In this document: one piece after another, positions 13,470 to 37,111 of the stretch
How positions within the stretch are numbered: the stretch's first letter is position 1
Layout of the letters: each line of letters starts with the position of its first letter
Virus genome (UHGV): UHGV-0110762
Direction: 5' to 3' (one strand)
DNA: 37,161 bases
Source of the DNA: a virus
The notes under the pieces: model-generated
What the model was told of the DNA's origin: nothing
The model's database searches: none
What the model saw: only the letters and a program-made list of their open reading frames with translations
Translations under genes and position numbers: made by a program

Positions 13470-13493
13470 GGTCACCAGATGGTGGCCTTTTTT
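13470..13493 (+). terminator. Rho-independent terminator after the moron gene
   Basis: GGTCACCA-GA-TGGTGGCC hairpin followed by TTTTTT. Confidence 0.6.
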
Positions 13494-13539
13494 ATTCCCC
13501 TCGTTCTGAGAGGACTCACAGCAATAAAGAGGGGGCTAA

Positions 13540-13926
13540 ATGTCCGATCCGATTTCCGGTACTGGGCTGGCTGGTGGTGTCCTGACGGGAGCTAGCGTCT
13601 ATGGATTTCTGTCCGGAACCGATTACGGCGTGGTGTTTGGCGCATTTGCCGGAGCTGTATTTTACATTGCAACAGCTGCGGACCTTAGTGCAACGCGTCG
13701 GCTGGCGTATTTTGTCGTGTCCTACATCGCCGGGATCATCTGCTCAGGGCTGGTGGGTTCAAAGCTGGCTGACTGGACTGGTTACAGTGATAAGCCTCTG
13801 GATGCCATCGGTGCCGTAATCGTTTCGGCTTTAGCTGTCAAAATCCTGACGTTCCTGAACAACCAGGATGTCGGCTCGCTGGTGGCGCTGATAACGCGCC
13901 GGGGAGGTTCAGGTGGTACTAAATGA
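13540..13926 (+). CDS. Holin (multi-TM small membrane protein)
   Basis: AGAGGGGG RBS; 128 aa with several Gly/Ala-rich hydrophobic helices; first gene of the lysis cassette upstream of the endolysin. Confidence 0.6.
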   Translation: MSDPISGTGLAGGVLTGASVYGFLSGTDYGVVFGAFAGAVFYIATAADLSATRRLAYFVVSYIAGIICSGLVGSKLADWTGYSDKPLDAIGAVIVSALAVKILTFLNNQDVGSLVALITRRGGSGGTK

Positions 13927-14194
13927 CCCATCGGCAACAATCAATGCGCTTCTTTGCGCTGGGGTAGTGCTGACCCTGATGTTTTACCGTCGCGGTGACT
14001 CCAGACATCGACCGTGGATATCTCGCTTAGCCTGGCTGCTTACGGTCATTTATAGCGCCGTACCGCTGGCGTATCTGTGCGGTATCTACCCTTATTCATC
14101 GTGGGCCACTATCGGGGCCAACATTATTTTCCTGTCCGTGCTGGTCGCCGTCAGAGGCAACGTGGCACGCCTGGTTGATCATCTGAGGCAATAA
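13913..14194 (+). CDS. Second small membrane protein of the lysis cassette (holin or antiholin-like)
   Basis: 93 aa with 2-3 hydrophobic helices; overlaps the holin stop and the endolysin start (TAATG). Confidence 0.5.
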   Translation: MVLNDPSATINALLCAGVVLTLMFYRRGDSRHRPWISRLAWLLTVIYSAVPLAYLCGIYPYSSWATIGANIIFLSVLVAVRGNVARLVDHLRQ

Positions 14195-14808
14195 TGAACC
14201 AATCACAATTTCAGCAGGCGGCTGGTATCAGCGCCGGGCTTTCTGCACGCTGGTTTCCGCACATTGACGCGGCAATGAAAGAGTTTGGAATTACAGCGGT
14301 TAATGATCAGGCTATGTTCATTGCACAAGTCGGGCATGAGTCTGCTGGCTTTACTTCGTTGGCCGAGAGTTTTAACTACTCGGTTGAAGGGCTGAAGAAA
14401 ACCTTCGGTAATCGCCTGACATCGTATCAGTGTGAAATGCTGGGGCGTGTTGATGGTAAACAGGTCGCTCACCAGCCACAAATAGCCAATCTGGTTTACG
14501 GTGACCGCATGGGGAATAACAGCCAGGGTGACGGCTGGAAATATCGCGGTCGTGGCCTGCTGCAAATCACTGGTCGTGAGAACTACACCAAATGCGGTAC
14601 GGCGCTAAAGCTTGACCTTGTGAGCACTCCGGAACTATTGACGCAAGAGCGACACGCGGCCCGTTCGGCGGCATGGTACTTCACGTTACGCGGTTGTCTC
14701 CTCTATTCGGGGGATGTGGAACGCGTCACGCAGATTATTAACGGCGGGCAGAACGGCATTAAAGACCGCCGTGAACGTTACGCCAAAGCTAAAGCCGCAC
14801 TGGTGTGA
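14194..14808 (+). CDS. Endolysin, glycoside hydrolase family 19 (chitinase-like lysozyme)
   Basis: Motifs FIAQVGHESAGF, NYxxxxxxxxG, GRGLLQITGRENY typical of GH19 phage endolysins. Confidence 0.8.
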   Translation: MNQSQFQQAAGISAGLSARWFPHIDAAMKEFGITAVNDQAMFIAQVGHESAGFTSLAESFNYSVEGLKKTFGNRLTSYQCEMLGRVDGKQVAHQPQIANLVYGDRMGNNSQGDGWKYRGRGLLQITGRENYTKCGTALKLDLVSTPELLTQERHAARSAAWYFTLRGCLLYSGDVERVTQIINGGQNGIKDRRERYAKAKAALV

Positions 14809-14815
14809 GGTCACT

Positions 14816-15085
14816 ATGGGACTTGAAATGATTATCGGCCTGATTGTTGCCGCGCTGGCAGCAATTGCAGGTGCCTTTGGTCTGGGTAAATCTCGCGGTA
14901 CCAGTATCGCAGAAACAAAAGCGGACCAGCAACGCACTGAAGAGCGTGCAGCAGCTACAGAAGCGGTAGCCGAACGCCGGGTAGAAACAACAAAAGGAGC
15001 CAGGGATGTACAGCAGACTGTTAATCATCTTCCTGATGACGATGTTGACCGCGAGTTGCGCGAAAAATTTACCCGCAAAACCTGA
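14816..15085 (+). CDS. i-spanin (Rz-like), N-terminal TM helix plus charged periplasmic domain
   Basis: ATG 14816 after GAGG; MGLEMIIGLIVAALAAIAGAF TM segment followed by Glu/Arg-rich helical region; directly after the endolysin. Confidence 0.6.
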   Translation: MGLEMIIGLIVAALAAIAGAFGLGKSRGTSIAETKADQQRTEERAAATEAVAERRVETTKGARDVQQTVNHLPDDDVDRELREKFTRKT

Positions 15086-15248
15086 AGTAACGGACACGGC
15101 CTGTGACTGGGTGAGCATCATCTACCTCACTGAGCACGATATTGCCGTGCTGGATAAACAGACGAAGCGGGACATATTGGCGCACAACAAATCAGTGCAG
15201 GCTAACTGCATGAAGGAGCCAGGTCGTGAACGTAGAGAACCTAAGTGA
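15006..15248 (+). CDS. o-spanin (Rz1-like) lipoprotein candidate, overlapping the 3' end of Rz in another frame
   Basis: Signal-peptide-like N-terminus ending LTASC (lipobox-like Cys); overlapped Rz/Rz1 architecture. Confidence 0.45.
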   Translation: MYSRLLIIFLMTMLTASCAKNLPAKPEVTDTACDWVSIIYLTEHDIAVLDKQTKRDILAHNKSVQANCMKEPGRERREPK

Positions 15249-15456
15249 CGCGCATTACATCTATAACGAGATGAAAGAGCTACAGCGACAGAAAGGCATA
15301 CTGGAAAGCGGTGCCGGACTTGGGGTGACAATCCAGTCGACCTATCAGGATAATGCCTTTCTTGATGCCATACGCCCGCATGCAGTGGATGAACTTGATC
15401 GGCGTATAGAGGAGAAAAAAGATGTACTGGTTAATTTGGGCCTCTCCTTCTCTTAA
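15226..15456 (+). CDS. Hypothetical small protein (76 aa)
   Basis: GTG start 7 nt after a perfect AAGGAG RBS (15213-15218). Confidence 0.45.
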   Translation: MNVENLSDAHYIYNEMKELQRQKGILESGAGLGVTIQSTYQDNAFLDAIRPHAVDELDRRIEEKKDVLVNLGLSFS

Positions 15457-15472
15457 ACTATCATGCATTACA

Positions 15473-15495
15473 GCAGGCACGTATCAGGTGCCTGC
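15473..15495. terminator. Palindromic hairpin between convergent genes (possible bidirectional terminator, no clear U-tract)
   Basis: GCAGGCAC-GTATCAG-GTGCCTGC perfect 8-bp inverted repeat between the stops of 15226..15456 (+) and 15502..15942 (-). Confidence 0.35.
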
Positions 15496-15501
15496 CATCA
15501 G

Positions 15502-15942
15502 TTAATAGGATATTTTATCGGAAGACTTGAGCGCTTTTAATGTAGCTTCAAGTATATCGAGAAATAGATCAACATCTTCATAATCATAAGATGGATTAGG
15601 TTTGTACTCCCCAATGTAAACCAACCCATTTTTACCTAAAAAGAAGCTAATTACTTCCTTGTTATTTTCATCAGTTGAGTCAGTTGCAACGAACTTCAAA
15701 AGAGGGGCTTCATTGATGACTACCAGTTTCTCATTGAAAACGAGTTCTAACCCATATGTTGAAAGTTCTAGGGTTAGTCTGTTTTCTGCATCTTGATTGA
15801 AAATCAAGGTGTTAGAAGTTAAAGAACTTTCTTTGCATGAGTCAATAACGTTTTTCTTAAGTTTGATTGCTTTTTCATCTAAAGCCTTTTTGTGTTCTGC
15901 ACACTTAATAACCTTACGGACGTCTAAATAGTCGATGCTCAT
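15502..15942 (-). CDS. Moron: hypothetical acidic protein (146 aa), opposite strand to the late operon
   Basis: ATG 15942 with AGAGG RBS; strongly AT-rich; no TM segment; no recognisable motif. Confidence 0.5.
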   Translation of the reverse strand: MSIDYLDVRKVIKCAEHKKALDEKAIKLKKNVIDSCKESSLTSNTLIFNQDAENRLTLELSTYGLELVFNEKLVVINEAPLLKFVATDSTDENNKEVISFFLGKNGLVYIGEYKPNPSYDYEDVDLFLDILEATLKALKSSDKISY

Positions 15943-16033
15943 AATTAAACCTCTTATTGATGAGTTAATAAACATTGAGCCATTAAGGCCAATATCAATA
16001 CTAAAGAATGAGAAAGTTTAAGTTATTAGAGTT

Positions 16034-16321
16034 ATGTCTCAATTTGATGCCACTTCGAACACAAAAATGAACCTAACAAGAGGTCATATGCGTCTAACTG
16101 TATTAGATGACGATCCCGGCAGGAAGATTAATCTCGGTGTAGAGCGATACGCTGTTTTTCTCGATGGTATAGAGGTTAAGCATGTCTTCACTGCTGACGA
16201 TGAGAAGGGCGAAGTAATCGCAGCCGTTCCTGATGAGCGTGGTTATATGACGACAGAGAACGGTGAAGTGAAGCGGCATACGCTTCACGGCTCTGTGAGG
16301 ATTGAACCATGCCAGCGTTAA
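16034..16321 (+). CDS. Hypothetical small protein (95 aa, or 77 aa from ATG 16088 which has an AGAGG RBS)
   Basis: ORF divergent from the 15502..15942 gene across an AT-rich intergenic region. Confidence 0.4.
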   Translation: MSQFDATSNTKMNLTRGHMRLTVLDDDPGRKINLGVERYAVFLDGIEVKHVFTADDEKGEVIAAVPDERGYMTTENGEVKRHTLHGSVRIEPCQR

Positions 16322-16446
16322 TCCCTCGCGCATGTCGCAAGAGAGGTTGTCCCGGTACGACTACGGACCGTTCAGGCTACTGCGCTGATCACAAAGACTT
16401 TACCGCAGGCCATGTAGTCTTCGCGCTTCAGATGGCTCGGTGGTAG
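16309..16446 (+). pseudogene. Probable N-terminal remnant of a phage HNH endonuclease (45 codons)
   Basis: Translation MPALIPRACRKRGCPGTTTDRSGYCADHK matches the characteristic N-terminus (C...GC......YC..H) of HNH endonucleases found next to terminase genes, but the ORF stops after 45 codons and lacks the HNH core. Confidence 0.35.
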
Positions 16447-16478
16447 GATTATCCTCTTTTTAAATAAGGGATATATCA

Positions 16479-16778
16479 ATGAAAAAGACAATTCTGGGTG
16501 TCATTGCTTTGGGTCTGGTCGGTTGCGCGACGGTGGGTAAAGACTTTTCGGAAGCAGATGTCACCTCAATCCAAAAGGGGGTTACGACTGAGCAGGCTGT
16601 TTTGCAGAAGTTCGGTAAGCCAACCTCAGTAACTGCCGATTCCGAGGGCAATAAGATTTATGGTTGGACCTACGCTCATGCAACAGCGTTCAGCGTGGGG
16701 CAGGGCAAATCGCTCGTCGTCAAAGTAAATAAGGACGGCGTGGTGGATTCATACATCGTGAGCACTTCAAGACCGTAG
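16479..16778 (+). CDS. Lipoprotein with SmpA/OmlA (BamE-like) domain; moron in the bor-equivalent position
   Basis: Signal peptide MKKTILGVIALGLVGC with lipobox LVGC; mature domain pattern G.T..QV...G.P.......Y.W.Y.......L.V.F...G.V as in BamE/OmlA. Confidence 0.7.
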   Translation: MKKTILGVIALGLVGCATVGKDFSEADVTSIQKGVTTEQAVLQKFGKPTSVTADSEGNKIYGWTYAHATAFSVGQGKSLVVKVNKDGVVDSYIVSTSRP

Positions 16779-16931
16779 CATGCTATTTGCAGCCTCGCTC
16801 TCGCGGGGCTGATAGTTAACATCATCATGTGAAGACACATGCTCATGTCAATTACCCCTCAGCGCACCCGGCGCAACGAACGTAATACCTATTCTTTTAA
16901 CCTGCTTATCAGGCATAACCAGAGGCCCAAT

Positions 16932-17273
16932 ATGGCTAAAAACTACTACCAGGACGGCAATACAATGGACTGGCATAACGGGACCACAAAAGATGTGGTG
17001 TCAGGTCAACCGGTGATTGTTGGTGCGATCATCGGTATCGCTCAGCACGATATCGCCGCCAGCGGTGATGGTGTTCTGATGATGACCGGAGTATTCGTCT
17101 TGCCGAAGGTTGCAGCTGAGACCTAGCAGCGCGGGGTCCGACTCTGGCTGACGAAAGATGGCAAGTTGACCAGTAGCTCGAAGGATGGCACTGATGACAA
17201 CGCCGTTGCAGGCACTGCGTGGATTACCACCAATGCAAACGACCCTGAGGGTCGCGTTCGCCTCGGCTTCTAA
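16932..17273 (+). pseudogene. DUF2190 / phage cement (head decoration)-like paralog interrupted by an in-frame amber codon (TAG 17124-17126); uninterrupted product ends at 17126
   Basis: ATG 16932 with AGAGG RBS; translation aligns residue-for-residue with the decoration gene at 23859..24182 (LPKVAAET*QRGVRLWL vs LPKLAADDIAQGKTVYF) and the frame stays open after the TAG to a TAA at 17271-17273. Confidence 0.5.
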
Positions 17274-17380
17274 CCATCAGCCCCATCCAGCGCCCAGACT
17301 AGCCGGGCAACCCCGCCAGATCCCCACCTCAACTGATAACCATTCTCATATGGACGGGTCCTCCCGGAGGGGTGGCCTGC

Positions 17381-17410
17381 CACGAGGCGGCGGGCACGCG
17401 GAAAACGGCT
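17381..17410. other. Candidate cos (cosN-like) site upstream of the terminase small subunit
   Basis: AGGCGGCGGGCACGCGGAAAACGGC resembles the lambda cohesive end region GGGCGGCGACCTCGCGGGTTTTCGC (recalled); position immediately 5' of the Nu1-like gene. Confidence 0.3.
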
Positions 17411-30564: not shown

Positions 30565-31119
30565 ATGGCTAAATACAATACCGGAAATCCGCTGCCGTCA
30601 GAGAATCCTCGTAATATCCACCATGAATGTCACGACCAGCCTGATCTCATCACACGAGCAGAGGAAGAAAAGAGATTAAGGAGCCGAATGGTGAGCTTAT
30701 CAAACGCCTCAAAAATGAATTCATCCTCCAGAGAAGGTCGGTTTAATCCTGAAAAATACCTCTCGGTTACATGGCAGATGGGCGGCCGCGATTACCCGGT
30801 TCTCGACTGTTATGGCGTAATTCATGAGGTGAGGCGCGATCTAGGTCTGCCGGACTGGCCTGTTTTTGAGGGTGTTATTAACGAAGGCTCTCAGATGAAT
30901 GACACCTGCAACGGCTTCCTCAGCAGTATCGAAAAATGCGAGCCAGAAGAGGGTGCGGTAGCGGCGTGTTATACCGCGGGACTAGTAACGCATCTGGGAA
31001 TCGCCGTCACCGTTAATGGCGCTTTGCACGTCCTCGAGGCTAACCCTAAACGCAACGTGACCATATTACCTCTGGCCCGATTTCTCCGGCAGTACGTCAA
31101 AGTGGAGTTCTATAAGTGA
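30565..31119 (+). CDS. Tail tip assembly protein with NlpC/P60-like Cys-His peptidase motifs (gpK-like)
   Basis: VLDCYGVIHEV ... HLGIAV ... GALHVLEAN pattern; position between tail tip proteins and the J-like gene. Confidence 0.55.
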   Translation: MAKYNTGNPLPSENPRNIHHECHDQPDLITRAEEEKRLRSRMVSLSNASKMNSSSREGRFNPEKYLSVTWQMGGRDYPVLDCYGVIHEVRRDLGLPDWPVFEGVINEGSQMNDTCNGFLSSIEKCEPEEGAVAACYTAGLVTHLGIAVTVNGALHVLEANPKRNVTILPLARFLRQYVKVEFYK

Positions 31120-34100
31120 CGATCCGAATTTATCCCTCCCGAATCGAAGGCGAACCGCTGGAGTCGCATCAGCACGCCAGCACCACCATTGCCGACTGGT
31201 TCACCAGAAACGTGCAGGGCTGGCAGCCTGACATGACCCACCCGGTGGCGCTGGAGTTGAATGGTGTGTCTATCCCTCCGAATGAGTGGAGTGCGCAGAT
31301 TATCGCACCGGATGATGATGTACGCCTGTATCCCGTTCCGTTTGGCCCGGCGGCGCCAGCCTGGCTGGTCTGGACGGCAGTGGCAATAGCCGTCGCCTCT
31401 GCCGCCTACTCCATCTACATGATGAGCACCATGCAGACCGGCGGCGCCAGCCAGCCCGGCAACGGGGATCAACTCGAGCTCAACCCTGCAAAGGCCAATA
31501 TGGCAAAACTGGGCGATCCCATCCGGGAGATATTTGGTCGCTATAAGGTGTGGCCGGATTACGTCGTCCAGCCGGTTTCGCGCTTCGATTCCGCCGATCC
31601 CAAAAAATACGTGACCAGCATGTTTTTATGCGTGGGGGTGGGCGACATGGCACTGCCCGCGTCGGCGATACGCATTGGCTCCACGCCAGCATCCGCGTTC
31701 GGCAGTGATGTCAGCGCCACCATCTATCCACCGGGTGCCAGCGTTGCGGCCGATAGTCGTTCCGAGAACTGGTTCAACAGCGGCGAGGTGGGGAATACCA
31801 CTTCGGGTACCGCAGGCCTCGACCTCGGCTCAACCGGCCCGCAGACGGTCAGTATCATCTCTGATGCCATTCTGGTGAGCGGTAACACTCTTTCCCTGAT
31901 TGCGGCCACGGCCAGCGACGGTGAAACGGAGATCCCGGCGGCCTGGGTTGTTGGCACAGTAATCACGGTAGTAGCACCAAACTCCTACCGGGTTGCCAAT
32001 GCCGGCGGGTACAGCGTGATTTATGGTGATGTTGCTGAGCTACGGCCAGCTGCAGGCATGCCTGTCTCGGTGACGTTTAATGAGTCGGCTTATGATCTGT
32101 ATATCGCCAGTTACGCAGCAGGCGTTCCGGCGGTGCCCGGGGTGGGTGGTTCGACAGCGAGCATTACCGCCAGCGCCGCGCCCACCACGTACGATTTCAC
32201 GGCAACGCCGGTTACGTTCACGATCGGCTGGAAAGGCACGACGTATGCTATCTCACTCATTACCAGTTACGTCACGATGTCCGGACTGGTTAATACCATA
32301 TCAAACCAGCTCACCGGTTCCGGCCTGATCGCGCGCGATACTGGTGGCCGGCTGCAGATTGCCGAGGAAAGCAGCCCGTTTGCCGGGGGGGCCATCAGTC
32401 ACAGCGCTCTTCCGGTCTCCGTATTCGGCAGCGCTACGGTAGATGTTACCGGGGTGGCCTCGACGGGCGGTACCGCGGCGGTTGAGGCAAATATCACGCT
32501 GGCGTATGACAGTGCGACAGGCAAGCCTTTCACCGGCATCCCTGATGGCGTACAGCGGATCGGTATCGGCTATGCCGACGGCCAGTTCCGCATTACCGAT
32601 ATTGATGATCAGACCATCACGGTTGAGCGGGTGGTCGTCACCCAGGACACCAGTGGTAATGATGTTGTCACCGTGGACCCGACCTGGCCGGGGTTCACCG
32701 AGCGTACGCTGCTCGATGCCCAGGTCACCGGCGTGAATGATGATTACGCCTGGCTGGGGCCCTTCCTTGCCTGTCCGGACGGAGAAACCACGACTGCCAT
32801 CGAGAATAACTTCATTTTCCCCAATGGCCACATCCAGTACAAAAAGAACGGAGATCCCCAGTCGCACACCGTGCGGGTTCTGGTTCAGTACCGCAATGCC
32901 GCCTCTGCGGGAGCCTGGTCGCAGGTGGTTTATAACTTCACCAACAAAACCGCAGATGGCCACGGTTATACCCGGCGCATCAGCGGGCTGGCGGCAGCAC
33001 AGTATGAAGTCCGCGTGCGGCGCACGACAAAAATTGGCGGCGCAAGGACGGTGAACAATCTTTACTGGCAGGCGATGCGCTCGCGGTTAAGCAGACGCCC
33101 GGGGAGCTATGCCGGTGTGACGACCCTTGCGATGACGGTACGGACCGGTAACCGCCTGGCGGCCCAGTCCGATCGCCGCGTTAACGTCACTCCCACACGG
33201 CTATATAACGGACACGCTTCGCGCAGTATCAGCGGGGCGCTGTATCACGTTCTGGAATCTCTGGGTTTCCGCCCTGAGCAAATTGACCGCGCAGCGATTG
33301 ACGCCCTCGAGCAGACCTGGTGGACCCCTCGCGGGGAAACGTTCGACTGGGCCACCGGTGACAGTAAGTCGGCACTCGAGGTGCTGAAAATTATTACCGG
33401 CGCAGGGATGGGGTATTTCCTGCTGTCAGATGGACTGGTATCCGCCGGGCGGGAGGGCGTGAAAAACTGGACCGGAATGATCACCCCTCAGGAGACTACT
33501 GAAGAGCTTCAGACCGCGTTCAAGGCACCGAGCCAGGACGATTATGACGGCGTGGATGTGACGTATATCAACGGCACGACCTGGGCAGAAGAAACCGTAC
33601 AGTGCCGTCAGCCCGGAAACTCCACGCCAGTGAAGGTGGAAGACTACAGGCTGGAAGGGGTTGTGGATCAGGATCGGGCGTACCGTATTGGCATGCGCCG
33701 CTTGCGCGGATACCAGCTCCAGCGCCTGCAGCATACGACCAGTACGGAGATGGACGCGCTCTGCTACCAGTTTATGGACCGCATCATCCTCACTGATGAT
33801 ATTCCCGGTAACCAGACACTGAGCTGCCTCATCACTGAAATGAGCTGGGACAGCACAGCGATCATCATGTCGGTCAGCGAGCCGCCGGACTGGAGTTTTC
33901 CAAATCCGCGGGTGGTGATCCGCCACCAGGACGGACGGGCGTCGCCGCTACAGGTTCCGACGCGCATCGATGATTACACCCTGCGTATTCCATACAGCGC
34001 CGCGCTGGCACCGGAAGAATGGGAGATGGACAGTCCGTACATTGAGCCGCCGCGCCTGCTGTTCTGTTCGTCATCCCGTGTCGGGTATGACGCGCTGGTT

Positions 34101-34208
34101 GGCGAGATTTCTCCCGGAGGTGATGGGACCAGCAGTATTTCAGCCATTCAGTACCATCCCGATAAATATAAGTACGATGACGCCAGCTACCCCGGCGATG
34201 TCTCCTGA
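31116..34208 (+). CDS. Central tail fibre / host specificity protein (J-like), with an N-terminal region resembling a fused gpI-like segment
   Basis: 1030 aa, GTGA overlap with upstream gene; N-terminal about 100 aa contain a hydrophobic stretch (AAPAWLVWTAVAIAVASAAYSIYMM) as in lambda gpI; no separate I-like gene present. Confidence 0.75.
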   Translation: MTIRIYPSRIEGEPLESHQHASTTIADWFTRNVQGWQPDMTHPVALELNGVSIPPNEWSAQIIAPDDDVRLYPVPFGPAAPAWLVWTAVAIAVASAAYSIYMMSTMQTGGASQPGNGDQLELNPAKANMAKLGDPIREIFGRYKVWPDYVVQPVSRFDSADPKKYVTSMFLCVGVGDMALPASAIRIGSTPASAFGSDVSATIYPPGASVAADSRSENWFNSGEVGNTTSGTAGLDLGSTGPQTVSIISDAILVSGNTLSLIAATASDGETEIPAAWVVGTVITVVAPNSYRVANAGGYSVIYGDVAELRPAAGMPVSVTFNESAYDLYIASYAAGVPAVPGVGGSTASITASAAPTTYDFTATPVTFTIGWKGTTYAISLITSYVTMSGLVNTISNQLTGSGLIARDTGGRLQIAEESSPFAGGAISHSALPVSVFGSATVDVTGVASTGGTAAVEANITLAYDSATGKPFTGIPDGVQRIGIGYADGQFRITDIDDQTITVERVVVTQDTSGNDVVTVDPTWPGFTERTLLDAQVTGVNDDYAWLGPFLACPDGETTTAIENNFIFPNGHIQYKKNGDPQSHTVRVLVQYRNAASAGAWSQVVYNFTNKTADGHGYTRRISGLAAAQYEVRVRRTTKIGGARTVNNLYWQAMRSRLSRRPGSYAGVTTLAMTVRTGNRLAAQSDRRVNVTPTRLYNGHASRSISGALYHVLESLGFRPEQIDRAAIDALEQTWWTPRGETFDWATGDSKSALEVLKIITGAGMGYFLLSDGLVSAGREGVKNWTGMITPQETTEELQTAFKAPSQDDYDGVDVTYINGTTWAEETVQCRQPGNSTPVKVEDYRLEGVVDQDRAYRIGMRRLRGYQLQRLQHTTSTEMDALCYQFMDRIILTDDIPGNQTLSCLITEMSWDSTAIIMSVSEPPDWSFPNPRVVIRHQDGRASPLQVPTRIDDYTLRIPYSAALAPEEWEMDSPYIEPPRLLFCSSSRVGYDALVGEISPGGDGTSSISAIQYHPDKYKYDDASYPGDVS

Positions 34209-34227
34209 AAACACCCTTAATTGCATA

Positions 34228-34249
34228 ACCCGCTCCGGCGGGTTTTTTT
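34228..34249 (+). terminator. Rho-independent terminator between J-like gene and tail spike gene
   Basis: ACCCGC-TCCG-GCGGGT hairpin followed by TTTTTTT. Confidence 0.6.
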
Positions 34250-34265
34250 ATGCTGGAGAAATACA

Positions 34266-36629
34266 ATGGCACCATGCAACACTCTTAACCCGCCGGGTTC
34301 AACTGACCCACGCGATTTACGTGATAACGCTCAGAACCTGGATCAGGCGGTAAATGGAATTACCAACAAAACATGGACCGACAGGCTGGGTCGGATACGT
34401 AAATCGTGGAGTGGAATGGAATATGACTTCAATAATCAGATAGCTGATCAGGAAACGCGATTTCGCACCTTTATTGAAAATGCGGGCTATGACGTAATTG
34501 GAGATTATGAAGACGGCATAATTACTGTCTCTGAATACAATGAGCTGATTCGTTATGACGGTGAATTCTATAAGCTGTCTGCTGGTACCAAACCACCTTA
34601 TAAAACAGCCGGGACAACAAAAACTTCGTGGGATACAACTGACTCTTCCCATTTTGTCTCCGTAGGCGATGCCTCTCTTCGGCAGTTAATTCTCAGTGCT
34701 GCGGCACCATTATTTCAGGGACATATTAAAACCCTGGATTACTGGGCAGCAAAAATGCATGCCGGAGAGACGGTTATTATTACCAGCATAGCCGATTCGA
34801 CCGGTGATGGTAATGGCTCCACGGGGTGGACGGCAAACCCCACCACGCCTGTAACTGGCTTCCCGTGGGCCACTGCACCTCTGGCCAACAGTGACCATAA
34901 CGCAGAAGCGCCCAATGCATGGTGTGCCAGACTGCAGACAATCCTTCGGCAGTACCATCGTAACAACAACATTAGCGTTTATAACGCTGGGTATTCCGGC
35001 CAGCAAATGCAGAACGGCTGGGTAAATTATTACTTTGATAAAATCGTCCTGCAAAACCCCTATATTCCTTCTAACCCGGATATCGTGATCATCAGCTTCG
35101 GGCTGAACGATATTACAGACGCAGGAAATAAAATCACCGAGCATATCGCGCAAACAATCGAGGTCATGAAGAAGGTTATCGCAGCCGGCGCCACACCCGT
35201 ACTAACGACCTGCGATGCAAACTGGCGCTCCTACAACGGCTGGAACTCTGGTACTTCCGGGCGTGACAATGAAGAAGCTGCAGCCCAGATCGATGCCGCG
35301 AAAAAATACATGGCGGAGGTGCTGGGGGTGTCCATTATCGATCAGGACTTCATGCAAAAAACATGGATGTCCAAAAACAGCGATTACTCCAACCAGTATG
35401 AACTCCAGCCTGACGGCCTGCACTGGGGGGACGTTGGCCATGCGATGAAAGCGTCCTTTGTCGCTCAGTCGTTTATGCCTGACATTCTTCGCTGCTACGG
35501 TACTGATATTGAGCGTATCTGCTGGATGGACAGCCGGATGCGATATTCGAAGGACTACAATTCCAGCTGGGTTCCTGATACGGGGTCGGAGGGATATAAA
35601 TACTCGCGGTTCCCGCGGATCTGGTACATCCAGGCCGCAGACTATGTGGCGAGCGAGGTTATCTTTGACTTCTTCGTGTGGAGCGAGGGTAATCAGGATT
35701 CCCTGATATACCGCAATTTTGGCAACAGCAATATTGGATCTACATATGCAGCCGACCAGCTGCCGCGCGTGAGGGTCTTTTCACTCGGTAACTCTTCCGC
35801 CTATTACGATAAAGAGCTTCCGGACACCGGAGAGAACGAAGCAGCCATCAACGCGACAGACCGTCCATTCTATCTTACCAAGTTGAAATACGGGCTTAAC
35901 CGTATCCAGGTGATCGCGCCATCGGCGACAGTTCTCGGGGCATTCTGGGGCGGCTGGTTTGAGTTCAATCCGTTCTGGAAGGCCAGGGACACCTTTGGCT
36001 ACGTGAACAACTACGGCGCGCCAAATTATATTCAGGTGAATGCGCTGGAGAAAACCGGGCCTCTCGATTTCCGCTTCGAGGCGGATGCCACAAATAACCG
36101 CGTGGCGTTCATGAATCCTGAGATGTTTGACGGCACAAACTGCGCTGATATTGGACAGGTAGGTGACAAAGTTGAAATCCTGGTTGAGGGCTTCTTCGAC
36201 ACGGATACGGGTTTTCTTTTCTTTGGCGGGAAGTCCCTCAACCGAAACTCGGGAGCTGCAGATAATTATCAGGAGGATAATTGCCTGCTTTTGTATGCCA
36301 CGTCGAAAACATTTAACCTGCTACAGCTGCGCTATCCATACCAGGGTTCCGCTCCCTATCCTCAGATCCAGGCCGGGATAGACGATGTTTATAGTCCCAC
36401 CGATAGGGCAAGAAAGTTCCTCATCCGCTGCGAAAAAACCTCGCCTACAACTCAGACCGTTAAGGTCTACGACGGGTGGGAGACTATCGACACCCCTGTC
36501 CTGAACTATACGGGAGACTGGACGCAGGGGAAGTTCTGCGGCGGTGGGATTATTGGCGGAGTTTACGCAACGAGAAACATTGCCAGGACGGTGCGGATCA
36601 CTCAGTTGTTGATTCGTAAATTCAAATAA
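34266..36629 (+). CDS. Tail spike / side tail fibre with SGNH (GDSL-like) hydrolase domain, probable receptor-modifying esterase
   Basis: ATG 34266 after GGAGA; conserved tail-fibre N-terminus (NTLNPPGSTDPRDLRDNAQNLDQAVNGI); central IADSTGDG (block I-like) and ISFGLNDITD (GxND block) consistent with SGNH esterases. Confidence 0.65.
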   Translation: MAPCNTLNPPGSTDPRDLRDNAQNLDQAVNGITNKTWTDRLGRIRKSWSGMEYDFNNQIADQETRFRTFIENAGYDVIGDYEDGIITVSEYNELIRYDGEFYKLSAGTKPPYKTAGTTKTSWDTTDSSHFVSVGDASLRQLILSAAAPLFQGHIKTLDYWAAKMHAGETVIITSIADSTGDGNGSTGWTANPTTPVTGFPWATAPLANSDHNAEAPNAWCARLQTILRQYHRNNNISVYNAGYSGQQMQNGWVNYYFDKIVLQNPYIPSNPDIVIISFGLNDITDAGNKITEHIAQTIEVMKKVIAAGATPVLTTCDANWRSYNGWNSGTSGRDNEEAAAQIDAAKKYMAEVLGVSIIDQDFMQKTWMSKNSDYSNQYELQPDGLHWGDVGHAMKASFVAQSFMPDILRCYGTDIERICWMDSRMRYSKDYNSSWVPDTGSEGYKYSRFPRIWYIQAADYVASEVIFDFFVWSEGNQDSLIYRNFGNSNIGSTYAADQLPRVRVFSLGNSSAYYDKELPDTGENEAAINATDRPFYLTKLKYGLNRIQVIAPSATVLGAFWGGWFEFNPFWKARDTFGYVNNYGAPNYIQVNALEKTGPLDFRFEADATNNRVAFMNPEMFDGTNCADIGQVGDKVEILVEGFFDTDTGFLFFGGKSLNRNSGAADNYQEDNCLLLYATSKTFNLLQLRYPYQGSAPYPQIQAGIDDVYSPTDRARKFLIRCEKTSPTTQTVKVYDGWETIDTPVLNYTGDWTQGKFCGGGIIGGVYATRNIARTVRITQLLIRKFK

Positions 36630-36685: not shown

Positions 36686-36705
36686 CTACTGTATATAAAA
36701 ACAGT
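36686..36705 (+). promoter_or_regulatory. LexA (SOS) box TACTGTATATAAAAACAGTG
   Basis: Matches the LexA consensus CTGT-N8-ACAG; lies 16 nt upstream of the umuD-like start codon. Confidence 0.7.
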
Positions 36706-36721
36706 GAAAGGAGTGCAGATC

Positions 36722-37111
36722 ATGGGCTTTCCTTCACCTGCTGCAGATTATGTTGAAACACGAATCTCCCTCGATCAGCAGTTAATCAGCCAGCCCGCAG
36801 CGACTTATTTCATGCGTGCATCGCGTTCACATTTCAGGGAAGGGATAATTCAGGGGGCGCTGCTTGTTGTTGATGCCTCACTTTCAGCCTGTGATGGCTC
36901 GCTGCTGATATGTGCGATAGACGGGGAATTCAGGATCAAGCGATATCGGACTCATCCTCAACCCCACCTGGTTAATCTGGAGAACGGGAGAAGGGAGGCG
37001 TTGCCAGTAGATGATGACGGTTACAGTTCTGCACCCGCTATATTCGGGGTGATCACGTACATCATTAATGATGCCAGGAACGCGGAGTTTGATGACTGCC
37101 CGGTGATGTGA
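36722..37111 (+). CDS. umuD: UmuD-like protein (S24 family, error-prone polymerase V accessory subunit) beginning at the position of the UmuD' cleavage product
   Basis: ATG 36722 lies 8 nt after AAGGAG; MGFPSPAADYVE...ATYF...LLVVD...DGEF.IKR matches E. coli UmuD from Gly25 onward as recalled; no coding capacity for the N-terminal arm. Confidence 0.75.
   Translation: MGFPSPAADYVETRISLDQQLISQPAATYFMRASRSHFREGIIQGALLVVDASLSACDGSLLICAIDGEFRIKRYRTHPQPHLVNLENGRREALPVDDDGYSSAPAIFGVITYIINDARNAEFDDCPVM

Follow-up and report, generated by a model that had tools for sequence, protein, structure and literature searches.

A mobile moron lipoprotein gene with a BamE-type fold between the lysis genes and cos of a lambdoid prophage

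Between the lysis genes and cos, phage lambda carries bor, which encodes a serum-resistance lipoprotein. The prophage that we analyzed also has a small lipoprotein gene in this interval, and the first-pass annotation of the locus described its product as a BamE/OmlA-like lipoprotein in the bor-equivalent position. This raises the question of whether the protein is a relative of BamE, a relative of Bor, or something else, and of what a temperate phage might gain from it. We examined the gene within its window, which is the whole stretch of 37,161 nucleotides from virus genome UHGV-0110762. A cI-like repressor, a Q antiterminator, a J-like tip protein, and a GDSL-esterase tail spike are all encoded in the window, which is a lambdoid prophage.

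A conserved lipoprotein with a BamE-type fold

The lipoprotein gene lies at 16479..16778 on the + strand (including the stop codon), exactly where the first-pass annotation had placed it, and encodes a prolipoprotein of 99 amino acids. This assignment draws on the sequence itself, on homologues, and on dN/dS. A Shine-Dalgarno sequence (AAGGGA, 16466..16471, + strand) ends 7 nt 5' of the ATG, and all of the homologous loci that we aligned have a purine-rich equivalent. As judged from the sequence and from conservation in the alignments, residues 1-15, MKKTILGVIALGLVG, are a predicted signal peptide (16479..16523, + strand), which ends with the lipobox residues L13-V14-G15 just before Cys16. Conservation also marks Cys16 (codon at 16524..16526, + strand) as the residue at which the mature protein is predicted to begin and to be lipidated: all 25 close homologues have it, conservation among 62 distant ones is at least 90%, and it is the sole cysteine among the 84 residues of the mature protein. 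The product had been called a secreted lipoprotein; it is probably exported, but the lipobox and Cys16 imply that it is lipid anchored rather than secreted. Under the sorting rule of the Lol pathway in E. coli, a lipoprotein without the Lol-avoidance aspartate at position +2 goes to the outer membrane. Because the +2 residue here is alanine, sorting to the outer membrane is predicted.

Several lines of evidence indicate that this is a genuine gene rather than an open reading frame that arose by chance: the best homologues match with E = 1e-52, the identical protein is recorded in 263 blocks of the assembly collection (its cluster entry comprises 141 contigs), and dN/dS is low. Across 33 unsaturated pairs (pairwise Nei-Gojobori estimates), the median dN/dS is 0.065 and the maximum is 0.19, values that show a gene evidently under strong purifying selection. 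Source annotations of the identical protein are either "hypothetical protein" or "Lipoprotein SmpA/OmlA domain-containing protein."

When the protein itself is compared with libraries of families, its strongest match is phrog_3135 (unknown function; E = 1e-20). The match to the Pfam family for BamE (PF04355) has 14.9 bits and E = 0.023, which is below the gathering cut-off of 23.2. A match to NCBIfam lipo_J517_1871 covers residues 1-33 only and hence is uninformative. Relatives of the protein are more telling. A profile of 62 relatives matches E. coli BamE with E = 8e-7 across residues 20-93, which is the whole domain, and 44 of the 62 sampled relatives match PF04355 themselves (best E = 3e-10). 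In an exhaustive HMM search, the family comprises 3020 cluster representatives at E <= 1e-3 and 399 at E <= 1e-10; most members are lipoproteins of about 100-125 amino acids, and some have two domains in tandem.

The predicted structure gives the same picture. An AlphaFold2 model that was built on 25 homologues (pLDDT 86.7, pTM 0.73) has two short helices followed by a three-stranded sheet (alpha-alpha-beta-beta-beta) and is globular, without a C-terminal transmembrane segment. This domain, which corresponds to 16527..16775 on the + strand, would be joined to the lipid anchor by a link of just three residues (A-T-V). The best 18 Foldseek matches in the PDB are all chains of E. coli BamE (TM 0.61-0.80). 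The fold matches also include the N-terminal domain of TpgA in complex with the barrel domain of AtaA; since BamE is part of the BAM complex and the TpgA domain sits with the AtaA barrel, domains of this type are found alongside outer-membrane barrels. Overall, the predicted fold and the intermediate profiles confirm that the lipoprotein belongs to the BamE/SmpA-OmlA superfamily, so the label "BamE/OmlA-like" holds at the level of fold and superfamily.

The lipoprotein differs in many ways from BamE proper (SmpA/OmlA, PF04355), which is a lipoprotein subunit of the beta-barrel assembly machinery. The two proteins are only 17-20% identical, and the NCBIfam equivalog for BamE (PRK11548) gives 13.3 bits, versus a cut-off of 93. 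Whereas BamE is a core chromosomal gene, the phage gene is prophage-borne and patchily distributed. The clearest difference is at the N-terminus. Both HMM alignments pair Gly20 of the phage protein with Gly35 of BamE, so that the spacer between the lipidated cysteine and the domain is three residues (A-T-V, Cys16 to Gly20) in the phage protein, as compared to 14 (Cys20 to Gly35) in BamE. The short C-A-x-x-G tether is a hallmark, in the consensus, of the whole phage-associated subfamily. In BamE, the N-terminal extension (C20 to I32), with the conserved Tyr28, contacts turn 2 of BamA and is needed for normal outer-membrane integrity and substrate assembly, and Tyr37 is reported to be important for the contact with BamA (bioRxiv 10.1101/2024.10.31.621230). 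The phage protein has neither the 11-residue N-terminal extension with Y28 nor the C-terminal tail of BamE. We also compared the residues of BamE that contact BamA or BamD (Y37, M64, and D66). Y37 pairs with Asp22 of the phage protein in both HMM alignments; across the loop that contacts BamD (BamE 62-69), the two alignments disagree, so the equivalence of D66 and Asp54 is uncertain. Judging from these comparisons, the phage protein is a minimal BamE-type domain that is pinned to the membrane, and it is not an orthologue of the BAM subunit. Thus, an effect on the assembly of outer-membrane proteins cannot be assumed.

The interval between the lysis genes and cos

Upstream of the lipoprotein gene, and in the same orientation, are genes for a holin (13913-14194) and a GH19 endolysin (14194-14808). 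They are followed by an i-spanin-like open reading frame with a transmembrane segment (14714-15085), which overlaps an o-spanin-like open reading frame with the lipobox LTASC (15006-15248). Four open reading frames or remnants lie between the spanin-like pair and the lipoprotein gene: 15226-15456, an AT-rich one at 15502-15975 that is antisense, 16034-16321, and 16309-16446, which contains a remnant (45 codons) of an HNH endonuclease (phrog_144 HNH, E = 6e-7). Downstream, the order is a paralogue of Phage_cement_2, the cos block, a DUF1441 small terminase, and a GpA-type large terminase. In a local alignment with the end-to-start junction of lambda, the region at 17334..17400 (+ strand) is homologous to cosQ/cosN of lambda, and it includes a cosN-like sequence, AGGCGGCGGGCA, at 17385-17396. 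The cos block is conserved in four divergent loci. Given the position of cos, the lipoprotein gene lies close to the right end of the packaged chromosome, at a distance of about 600 bp.

In lambda, bor (46459-46752, complement strand) likewise lies between Rz/Rz1 and cos. The proposed equivalence to bor thus stands as far as the slot is concerned, which runs from the lysis cassette to a lambda-homologous cos, but it fails for the strand: bor is antisense to the late operon, whereas the lipoprotein gene has the same orientation as the late genes. In addition, four open reading frames or remnants separate it from the spanin-like pair. As a separate observation, the arrangement of bor is copied by the neighboring AT-rich antisense open reading frame (15502-15975).

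A mosaic junction lies just to the left of the lipoprotein gene, at 16357..16382 (not assigned to a strand), inside the HNH-endonuclease remnant. On one side, a prophage of E. coli ARL09/232 matches the window from 13484 to 16382 (with 99.7% identity over 15400-16382); beyond 16382, that prophage has an intact HNH gene and a P27-type terminase. On the other side, a second lineage (loci L005, L016-L020, and L036-L043 of our set) is 92-95% identical to the window from 16357-16408 rightwards; for L016-L020, the match begins at 16357-16381. Because the two lineages meet in the HNH remnant, the lipoprotein gene is immediately to the right of a recombination junction.

The contents of the slot vary. 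The lipoprotein gene is missing from E. coli prophages whose packaging module is related (about 78% DNA identity), and their slot is filled with a Ser/Thr kinase and a PP2C phosphatase, or with Rha and hypothetical genes. In locus L005, the slot holds a gene for a trypsin-like protease (Trypsin_2) as well as the lipoprotein. In DNA searches in both near and distant modes, the lipoprotein gene was found in none of 5,426 complete E. coli genomes, and a DNA search of 50,697 phage records gave no match. Because the contents of the slot vary and the gene is missing from those 5,426 genomes, we consider the interval from the lysis genes to cos to be a hypervariable cargo slot, and the lipoprotein is, on this comparative evidence, dispensable cargo.

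A mobile cassette and its expression

Carriers of the gene are almost exclusively prophages of Enterobacteriaceae, with distant relatives in phages of Pseudomonas, Stenotrophomonas, and Salmonella. Homologues with 62-77% identity, from prophages of Klebsiella, Raoultella, Citrobacter, Enterobacter, and Sodalis, stay at the junction of lysis and packaging genes, even as their neighbors change: the endolysin beside them may be GH19, GH24, or GH108, and the gene downstream is either DUF2560 or the cement paralogue. The packaging regions of three of these loci (L021, L025, and L028) have no similarity, or only 23% similarity, to the terminase of the window.

At 31-46% identity, relatives turn up at other classical moron sites. 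In Pseudomonas phage YMC11/07/P54 and Salmonella phage S107, the relative is directly 3' of the repressor and co-oriented with it; in Pseudomonas phage Lodos, it adjoins the integrase. In contigs of Stenotrophomonas type and in a family of Salmonella prophages, it is within the tail operon, just before the chaperone or tape-measure genes, and 1278 blocks of the assembly collection contain this tail-operon relative from Salmonella. Environmental or plant-associated bacteria, such as Stenotrophomonas, Sodalis, and Alteromonas, also have phages that carry members of the family. We found one chromosomal, non-phage relative, in Winslowiella (38% identity), which implies that the family is not exclusively a weapon of phages. 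The suggestion that the gene is an accessory moron is therefore borne out, given the variable contents of the slot and the presence of the cassette at lysis-cos, immunity, integrase, and tail-operon sites.

Comparing homologous loci also revealed two flanking elements, which were found in no other way. The first is a conserved motif, GGTAGGAT, at 16442..16449 (+ strand), about 30 nt upstream of the start codon, with a possible -10 element, TAGGAT. Of 16 aligned enterobacterial loci, 13 retain the TAGGAT core (L021 has TAGTAT and L028 has TACGAT), and the sequence further 5' is unrelated between lineages. In the E. coli lineage, TAGGAT has a TG extension, and there is no recognizable -35 element. 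Beyond the E. coli lineage, the full 8-mer is found in only a few others, and the 37-kb window contains just two copies of it. We regard TAGGAT as a possible promoter element. The second is a hairpin just 3' of the stop codon, GCAGCCUCGC-UCUC-GCGGGGCUG (16790..16811, + strand), with a terminator-like stem. Its fold energy is -19.4 kcal/mol (z = -4.2), and in the window, the U-tract is degraded (GAUAGUU). In homologues from Klebsiella, Raoultella, and Salmonella, the same stem (CCTCGC-N4-GCGGGG) precedes T5-6. The homologues at loci L007, L011, L023, L026, L028, L029, L031, and L032 have canonical terminators after them, and most homologues have a T-tract after the hairpin, including the one midway along the tail operon in Salmonella. 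Taken together, the best reading of these comparisons is that the gene is a mobile moron-type cassette, which would consist of a short upstream motif, a ribosome binding site, the open reading frame, and a terminator-like hairpin.

The location of the gene on the late-operon strand suggests that the lipoprotein is made late in lytic growth. It might also be made in the lysogen. A terminator within a late operon makes sense only with a transcript that starts just upstream, when antitermination is off, and this gives indirect support for expression in the lysogen; copies that are linked to the repressor point likewise to independent expression in the lysogen. However, a consensus scan of the + strand flanks of the lipoprotein gene called neither a sigma-70 promoter nor a terminator. 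Since the gene is co-oriented with the late operon, has no promoter call on the + strand, and is followed by a hairpin without a U-tract, expression in the lysogen is no more than possible, perhaps from a weak promoter of its own.

Possible roles at the outer membrane

The gene joins a known class of phage moron lipoproteins, and databases already annotate the product as a SmpA/OmlA-domain protein. We did not find any functional studies of phage BamE/SmpA/OmlA lipoproteins in the literature, including on serum resistance, receptor exposure, or permeability. Among the closest comparisons are proteins from Pseudomonas temperate phages that are annotated as "BamE" or "SmpA/OmlA domain" (YMC11/07/P54 gp52, Lodos, PP9W2, and B3). 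These are true homologues (31-35% identity over the full length), and the PP9W2 protein is the best viral structural match. They are also encoded by accessory genes at moron sites, but in other positions (downstream of the repressor or beside the integrase) and in other hosts.

Among the better-known moron lipoproteins, lambda Bor (a relative of Iss) shares the slot between the lysis genes and cos and is also a small outer-membrane lipoprotein (97 amino acids, versus 99 for the phage protein) encoded by an accessory gene. It differs in its fold family and in the orientation of its gene, which is opposite to the late operon. The likeness to Bor did not survive at the level of the protein: hhalign aligns 18 columns, all of them in the signal peptide, so we rejected homology to Bor. 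We also rejected Cor, for which there was a match to phrog_1119 (E = 1.2e-3); when compared with Cor from HK022, both BLASTP and hhalign align only the 20-residue signal peptide. T5 Llp was the top match in an initial sequence search of the PDB (E = 0.13), and it was rejected because the alignment covers residues 1-46, which are mainly signal peptide. Neither Cor nor Llp is among the fold-search matches.

Llp (from T5), Cor (from T1, phi80, and HK022), and Rtp45 (from Rtp) are nevertheless comparable in kind, as they are small phage lipoproteins on the inner leaflet of the outer membrane, which is the location that we predict here. Llp binds the periplasmic face of FhuA (PMC9586334), and Rtp45, which binds LptDE at its periplasmic interface, displaces extracellular loops (PMC12685063). 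Exclusion factors prevent the loss of progeny on cell fragments after lysis (PMC12685063), and protecting progeny in this way would suit a late-expressed gene. The known exclusion lipoproteins have an internal disulphide, and their genes adjoin the gene for the receptor-binding protein; neither holds for the phage lipoprotein. The J-like gene (31116-34208) and the tail spike (34221-36629) are about 15 kb from the lipoprotein gene. The type of J C-terminus that this phage has is present in 454 viral contigs, but the lipoprotein is present in only 16, and the overlap consists of only five lipoprotein contigs from the E. coli lineage. Only one of the lipoprotein contigs has the GDSL tail spike as well. 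Given these numbers, and since the type of tail spike varies among carriers, the lipoprotein gene does not seem to be tied to one receptor-binding protein, and comparing the J C-terminus and the tail spike with the lipoprotein contigs gave no sign of a dedicated partnership. Along with the lack of any sequence or fold relationship beyond the signal peptide, these points speak against a dedicated role of the Cor/Llp type.

Overall, we propose that the gene is a mobile moron that encodes an outer-membrane-anchored binding module for exclusion or envelope protection. Lipidation and Lol sorting (with Ala at +2) would place the protein at the inner leaflet of the outer membrane, where the domain would be fixed to the periplasmic face. 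The very short tether argues for a domain that faces the periplasm, and strong conservation across enterobacterial genera implies a conserved partner. The gene is, moreover, optional cargo at sites that phages use for exclusion genes and for genes that modify the host. The lipoprotein may then be a protein-binding module that acts on a conserved component of the envelope, most plausibly on the periplasmic side of an outer-membrane beta-barrel or of its assembly machinery. It would be made at least late in lytic growth, and perhaps in the lysogen too. The pay-off would be that the lysogen or the infected cell, and the progeny phage, are shielded from superinfection or from other attacks on the envelope. 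The mode would be similar to that of the periplasmic exclusion lipoproteins Llp and Rtp45, with an unrelated fold. The confidence that we attach to this proposal varies. We are highly confident of the structural and genomic description of the lipoprotein gene, and the explanation as a whole seems to us evenly balanced between right and wrong. The functional part, that is, a periplasm-facing modulator of the outer membrane for exclusion or envelope protection, is tentative, and we would sooner expect it to be wrong than right.

Alternatively, the lipoprotein could be an immunity protein or inhibitor, in which a BamE/BLIP-like domain binds and neutralizes a toxin or enzyme that acts in the periplasm (for example, a T6SS effector, a bacteriocin, or a cell-wall hydrolase), to the competitive benefit of the lysogen. 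The domain does resemble BtiO and BLIP (in fold only), but no cognate toxin gene is adjacent in any context that we examined. The lipoprotein also has no match in PADLOC, whose library does not cover T6SS immunity. We think this role is unlikely. Another idea takes the resemblance to BamE at face value: the protein might mimic BamE by docking on POTRA5 of BamA or on BamD, and either replace BamE or compete with it. The remodeled biogenesis of outer-membrane proteins could then affect receptor display, RcsF/Rcs signaling, or the entry of phages or CDI toxins that depend on BamA. In favor of this idea, nothing in the PDB matches the structure better than E. coli BamE, the profile homology spans the whole domain, and strong conservation across the Enterobacteriaceae fits a conserved target. 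On the other hand, the N-terminal extension is missing (three residues instead of 14), the BamA-contacting Y37 pairs with Asp22, the identity is only 17-20%, and the equivalog score is 13.3 bits (versus 93), so we consider docking of this kind to be quite unlikely. The bolder version, a stripped-down BamE mimic that docks from the periplasmic side on BAM or on another essential outer-membrane machine and is spread by the temperate phages of several Gammaproteobacteria, is a long shot. If it were true, the mimic would reprogram the display of outer-membrane proteins or block competitors that enter via BamA or other beta-barrels, and it would be a new, fold-distinct class of exclusion or host-takeover lipoprotein with an essential, conserved target.

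Two other explanations would follow from the location of the gene. A virulence or serum-resistance factor that is expressed from the prophage, as Bor is, would fit with the lambda bor slot and with the similar size of the two outer-membrane lipoproteins, both of which are small (99 versus 97 amino acids). Yet there is no homology to Bor beyond the 18-residue signal peptide, the strand is opposite to that of the bor arrangement, and the very short tether suggests a domain that faces the periplasm. Relatives are also found in phages of Stenotrophomonas, Sodalis, and Alteromonas, where serum is irrelevant. Such a factor is very improbable. A lysis accessory, such as a component of the spanin or a regulator of lysis timing, is suggested by the location of the gene downstream of the holin, endolysin, and spanin genes and in the same orientation. 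But an overlapping spanin-like pair is already present (14714-15085 and 15006-15248). Moreover, spanins differ from the lipoprotein, which is globular, has no C-terminal transmembrane segment, and in other phages is encoded away from the lysis genes: relatives are in immunity regions, beside the integrase, and in tail operons. The gene is also found with GH19, GH24, and GH108 endolysins alike, and related prophages with a similar packaging module do without it. A role in lysis is barely credible.

If the lipoprotein is instead an outer-membrane-anchored binding module for exclusion or envelope protection, it would have instructive company, since Bor, Cor, Llp, and Rtp45 have repeatedly proved to be specific modulators of outer-membrane proteins. 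The family to which it belongs is widespread and strongly conserved, and phages of Escherichia, Klebsiella, Salmonella, Pseudomonas, and Stenotrophomonas carry it at classic moron sites. If it has no measurable effect, then it is one more annotated hypothetical lipoprotein. If its target is a conserved machine of the envelope, then the lipoprotein would be a natural probe or inhibitor of that machine, and it would be an unrecognized determinant of phage resistance in lysogens, which would be relevant to phage therapy.

Junction between the lysis and packaging modules

The remnant of an HNH endonuclease gene, 45 codons long (16309-16446, plus strand), marks a recombination junction, at 16357-16382, between the lysis and packaging modules. 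To the left lies a lysis module that is shared with the prophage of E. coli ARL09/232; the packaging module to which it is joined is of the lambda type and comes from another lineage.

Upstream of cos is a paralogue of the head-decoration gene Phage_cement_2 (16932-17273, plus strand), whose reading frame is interrupted at 17124-17126, where a TGG codon has become amber (TAG). Among the loci that we compared from other prophages and contigs, the paralogue is uninterrupted and encodes 113 amino acids in L005, L016, L036-L039, L041, and L043; in L040 and L042, it is called as longer or shorter. Phages with this pre-cos paralogue have a second cement gene after the capsid gene. The cos region itself (17334-17400), which includes a cosN-like sequence (AGGCGGCGGGCA, 17385-17396), is recognizably homologous to cosQ/cosN of lambda and is conserved in relatives from Klebsiella and Raoultella.

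The right end

A plus-strand gene at 34221-36629 encodes a tail-spike-like protein of 802 amino acids with a GDSL/SGNH esterase domain; this protein may be a receptor-binding protein of the polysaccharide deacetylase kind. Next comes a 135-amino-acid Peptidase_S24 (UmuD-like) ORF (36704-37111, plus strand).

Palindrome beside the lipoprotein cassette

An imperfect palindrome, GGCATTCACTGAGTGCCTGTGATAAT, recurs beside the lipoprotein cassette, on a side that differs between prophages: it lies about 30-65 nucleotides upstream of the lipoprotein gene in L021/L022 and just downstream of it in L025. In L011, it is downstream of a DUF2560 gene. The palindrome may mark module boundaries or have a regulatory role.

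Cargo and the antisense ORF

The slot between the lysis genes and cos holds other cargo elsewhere: a Ser/Thr kinase and PP2C phosphatase pair in a prophage of E. coli 027_SK3 (L046, 1864-3377), and, in a prophage of Sodalis (L139, 3745-4074), a small TonB_C-domain protein that adjoins the lipoprotein homologue.

Among the neighbors of the lipoprotein gene, the one that is arranged like lambda bor is a 157-amino-acid ORF on the minus strand (15502-15975), antisense to the late operon. With a GC content of 0.32-0.37, against 0.50-0.60 for the flanking DNA, this ORF is markedly AT-rich. Its sigma-70-like promoter, also on the minus strand, lies at 16042-16015. Pfam assigned the ORF to no family, and PADLOC gave just a weak match (PDC-M24A, E = 0.011). 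It looks like a lysogen-expressed moron or a candidate defense gene.
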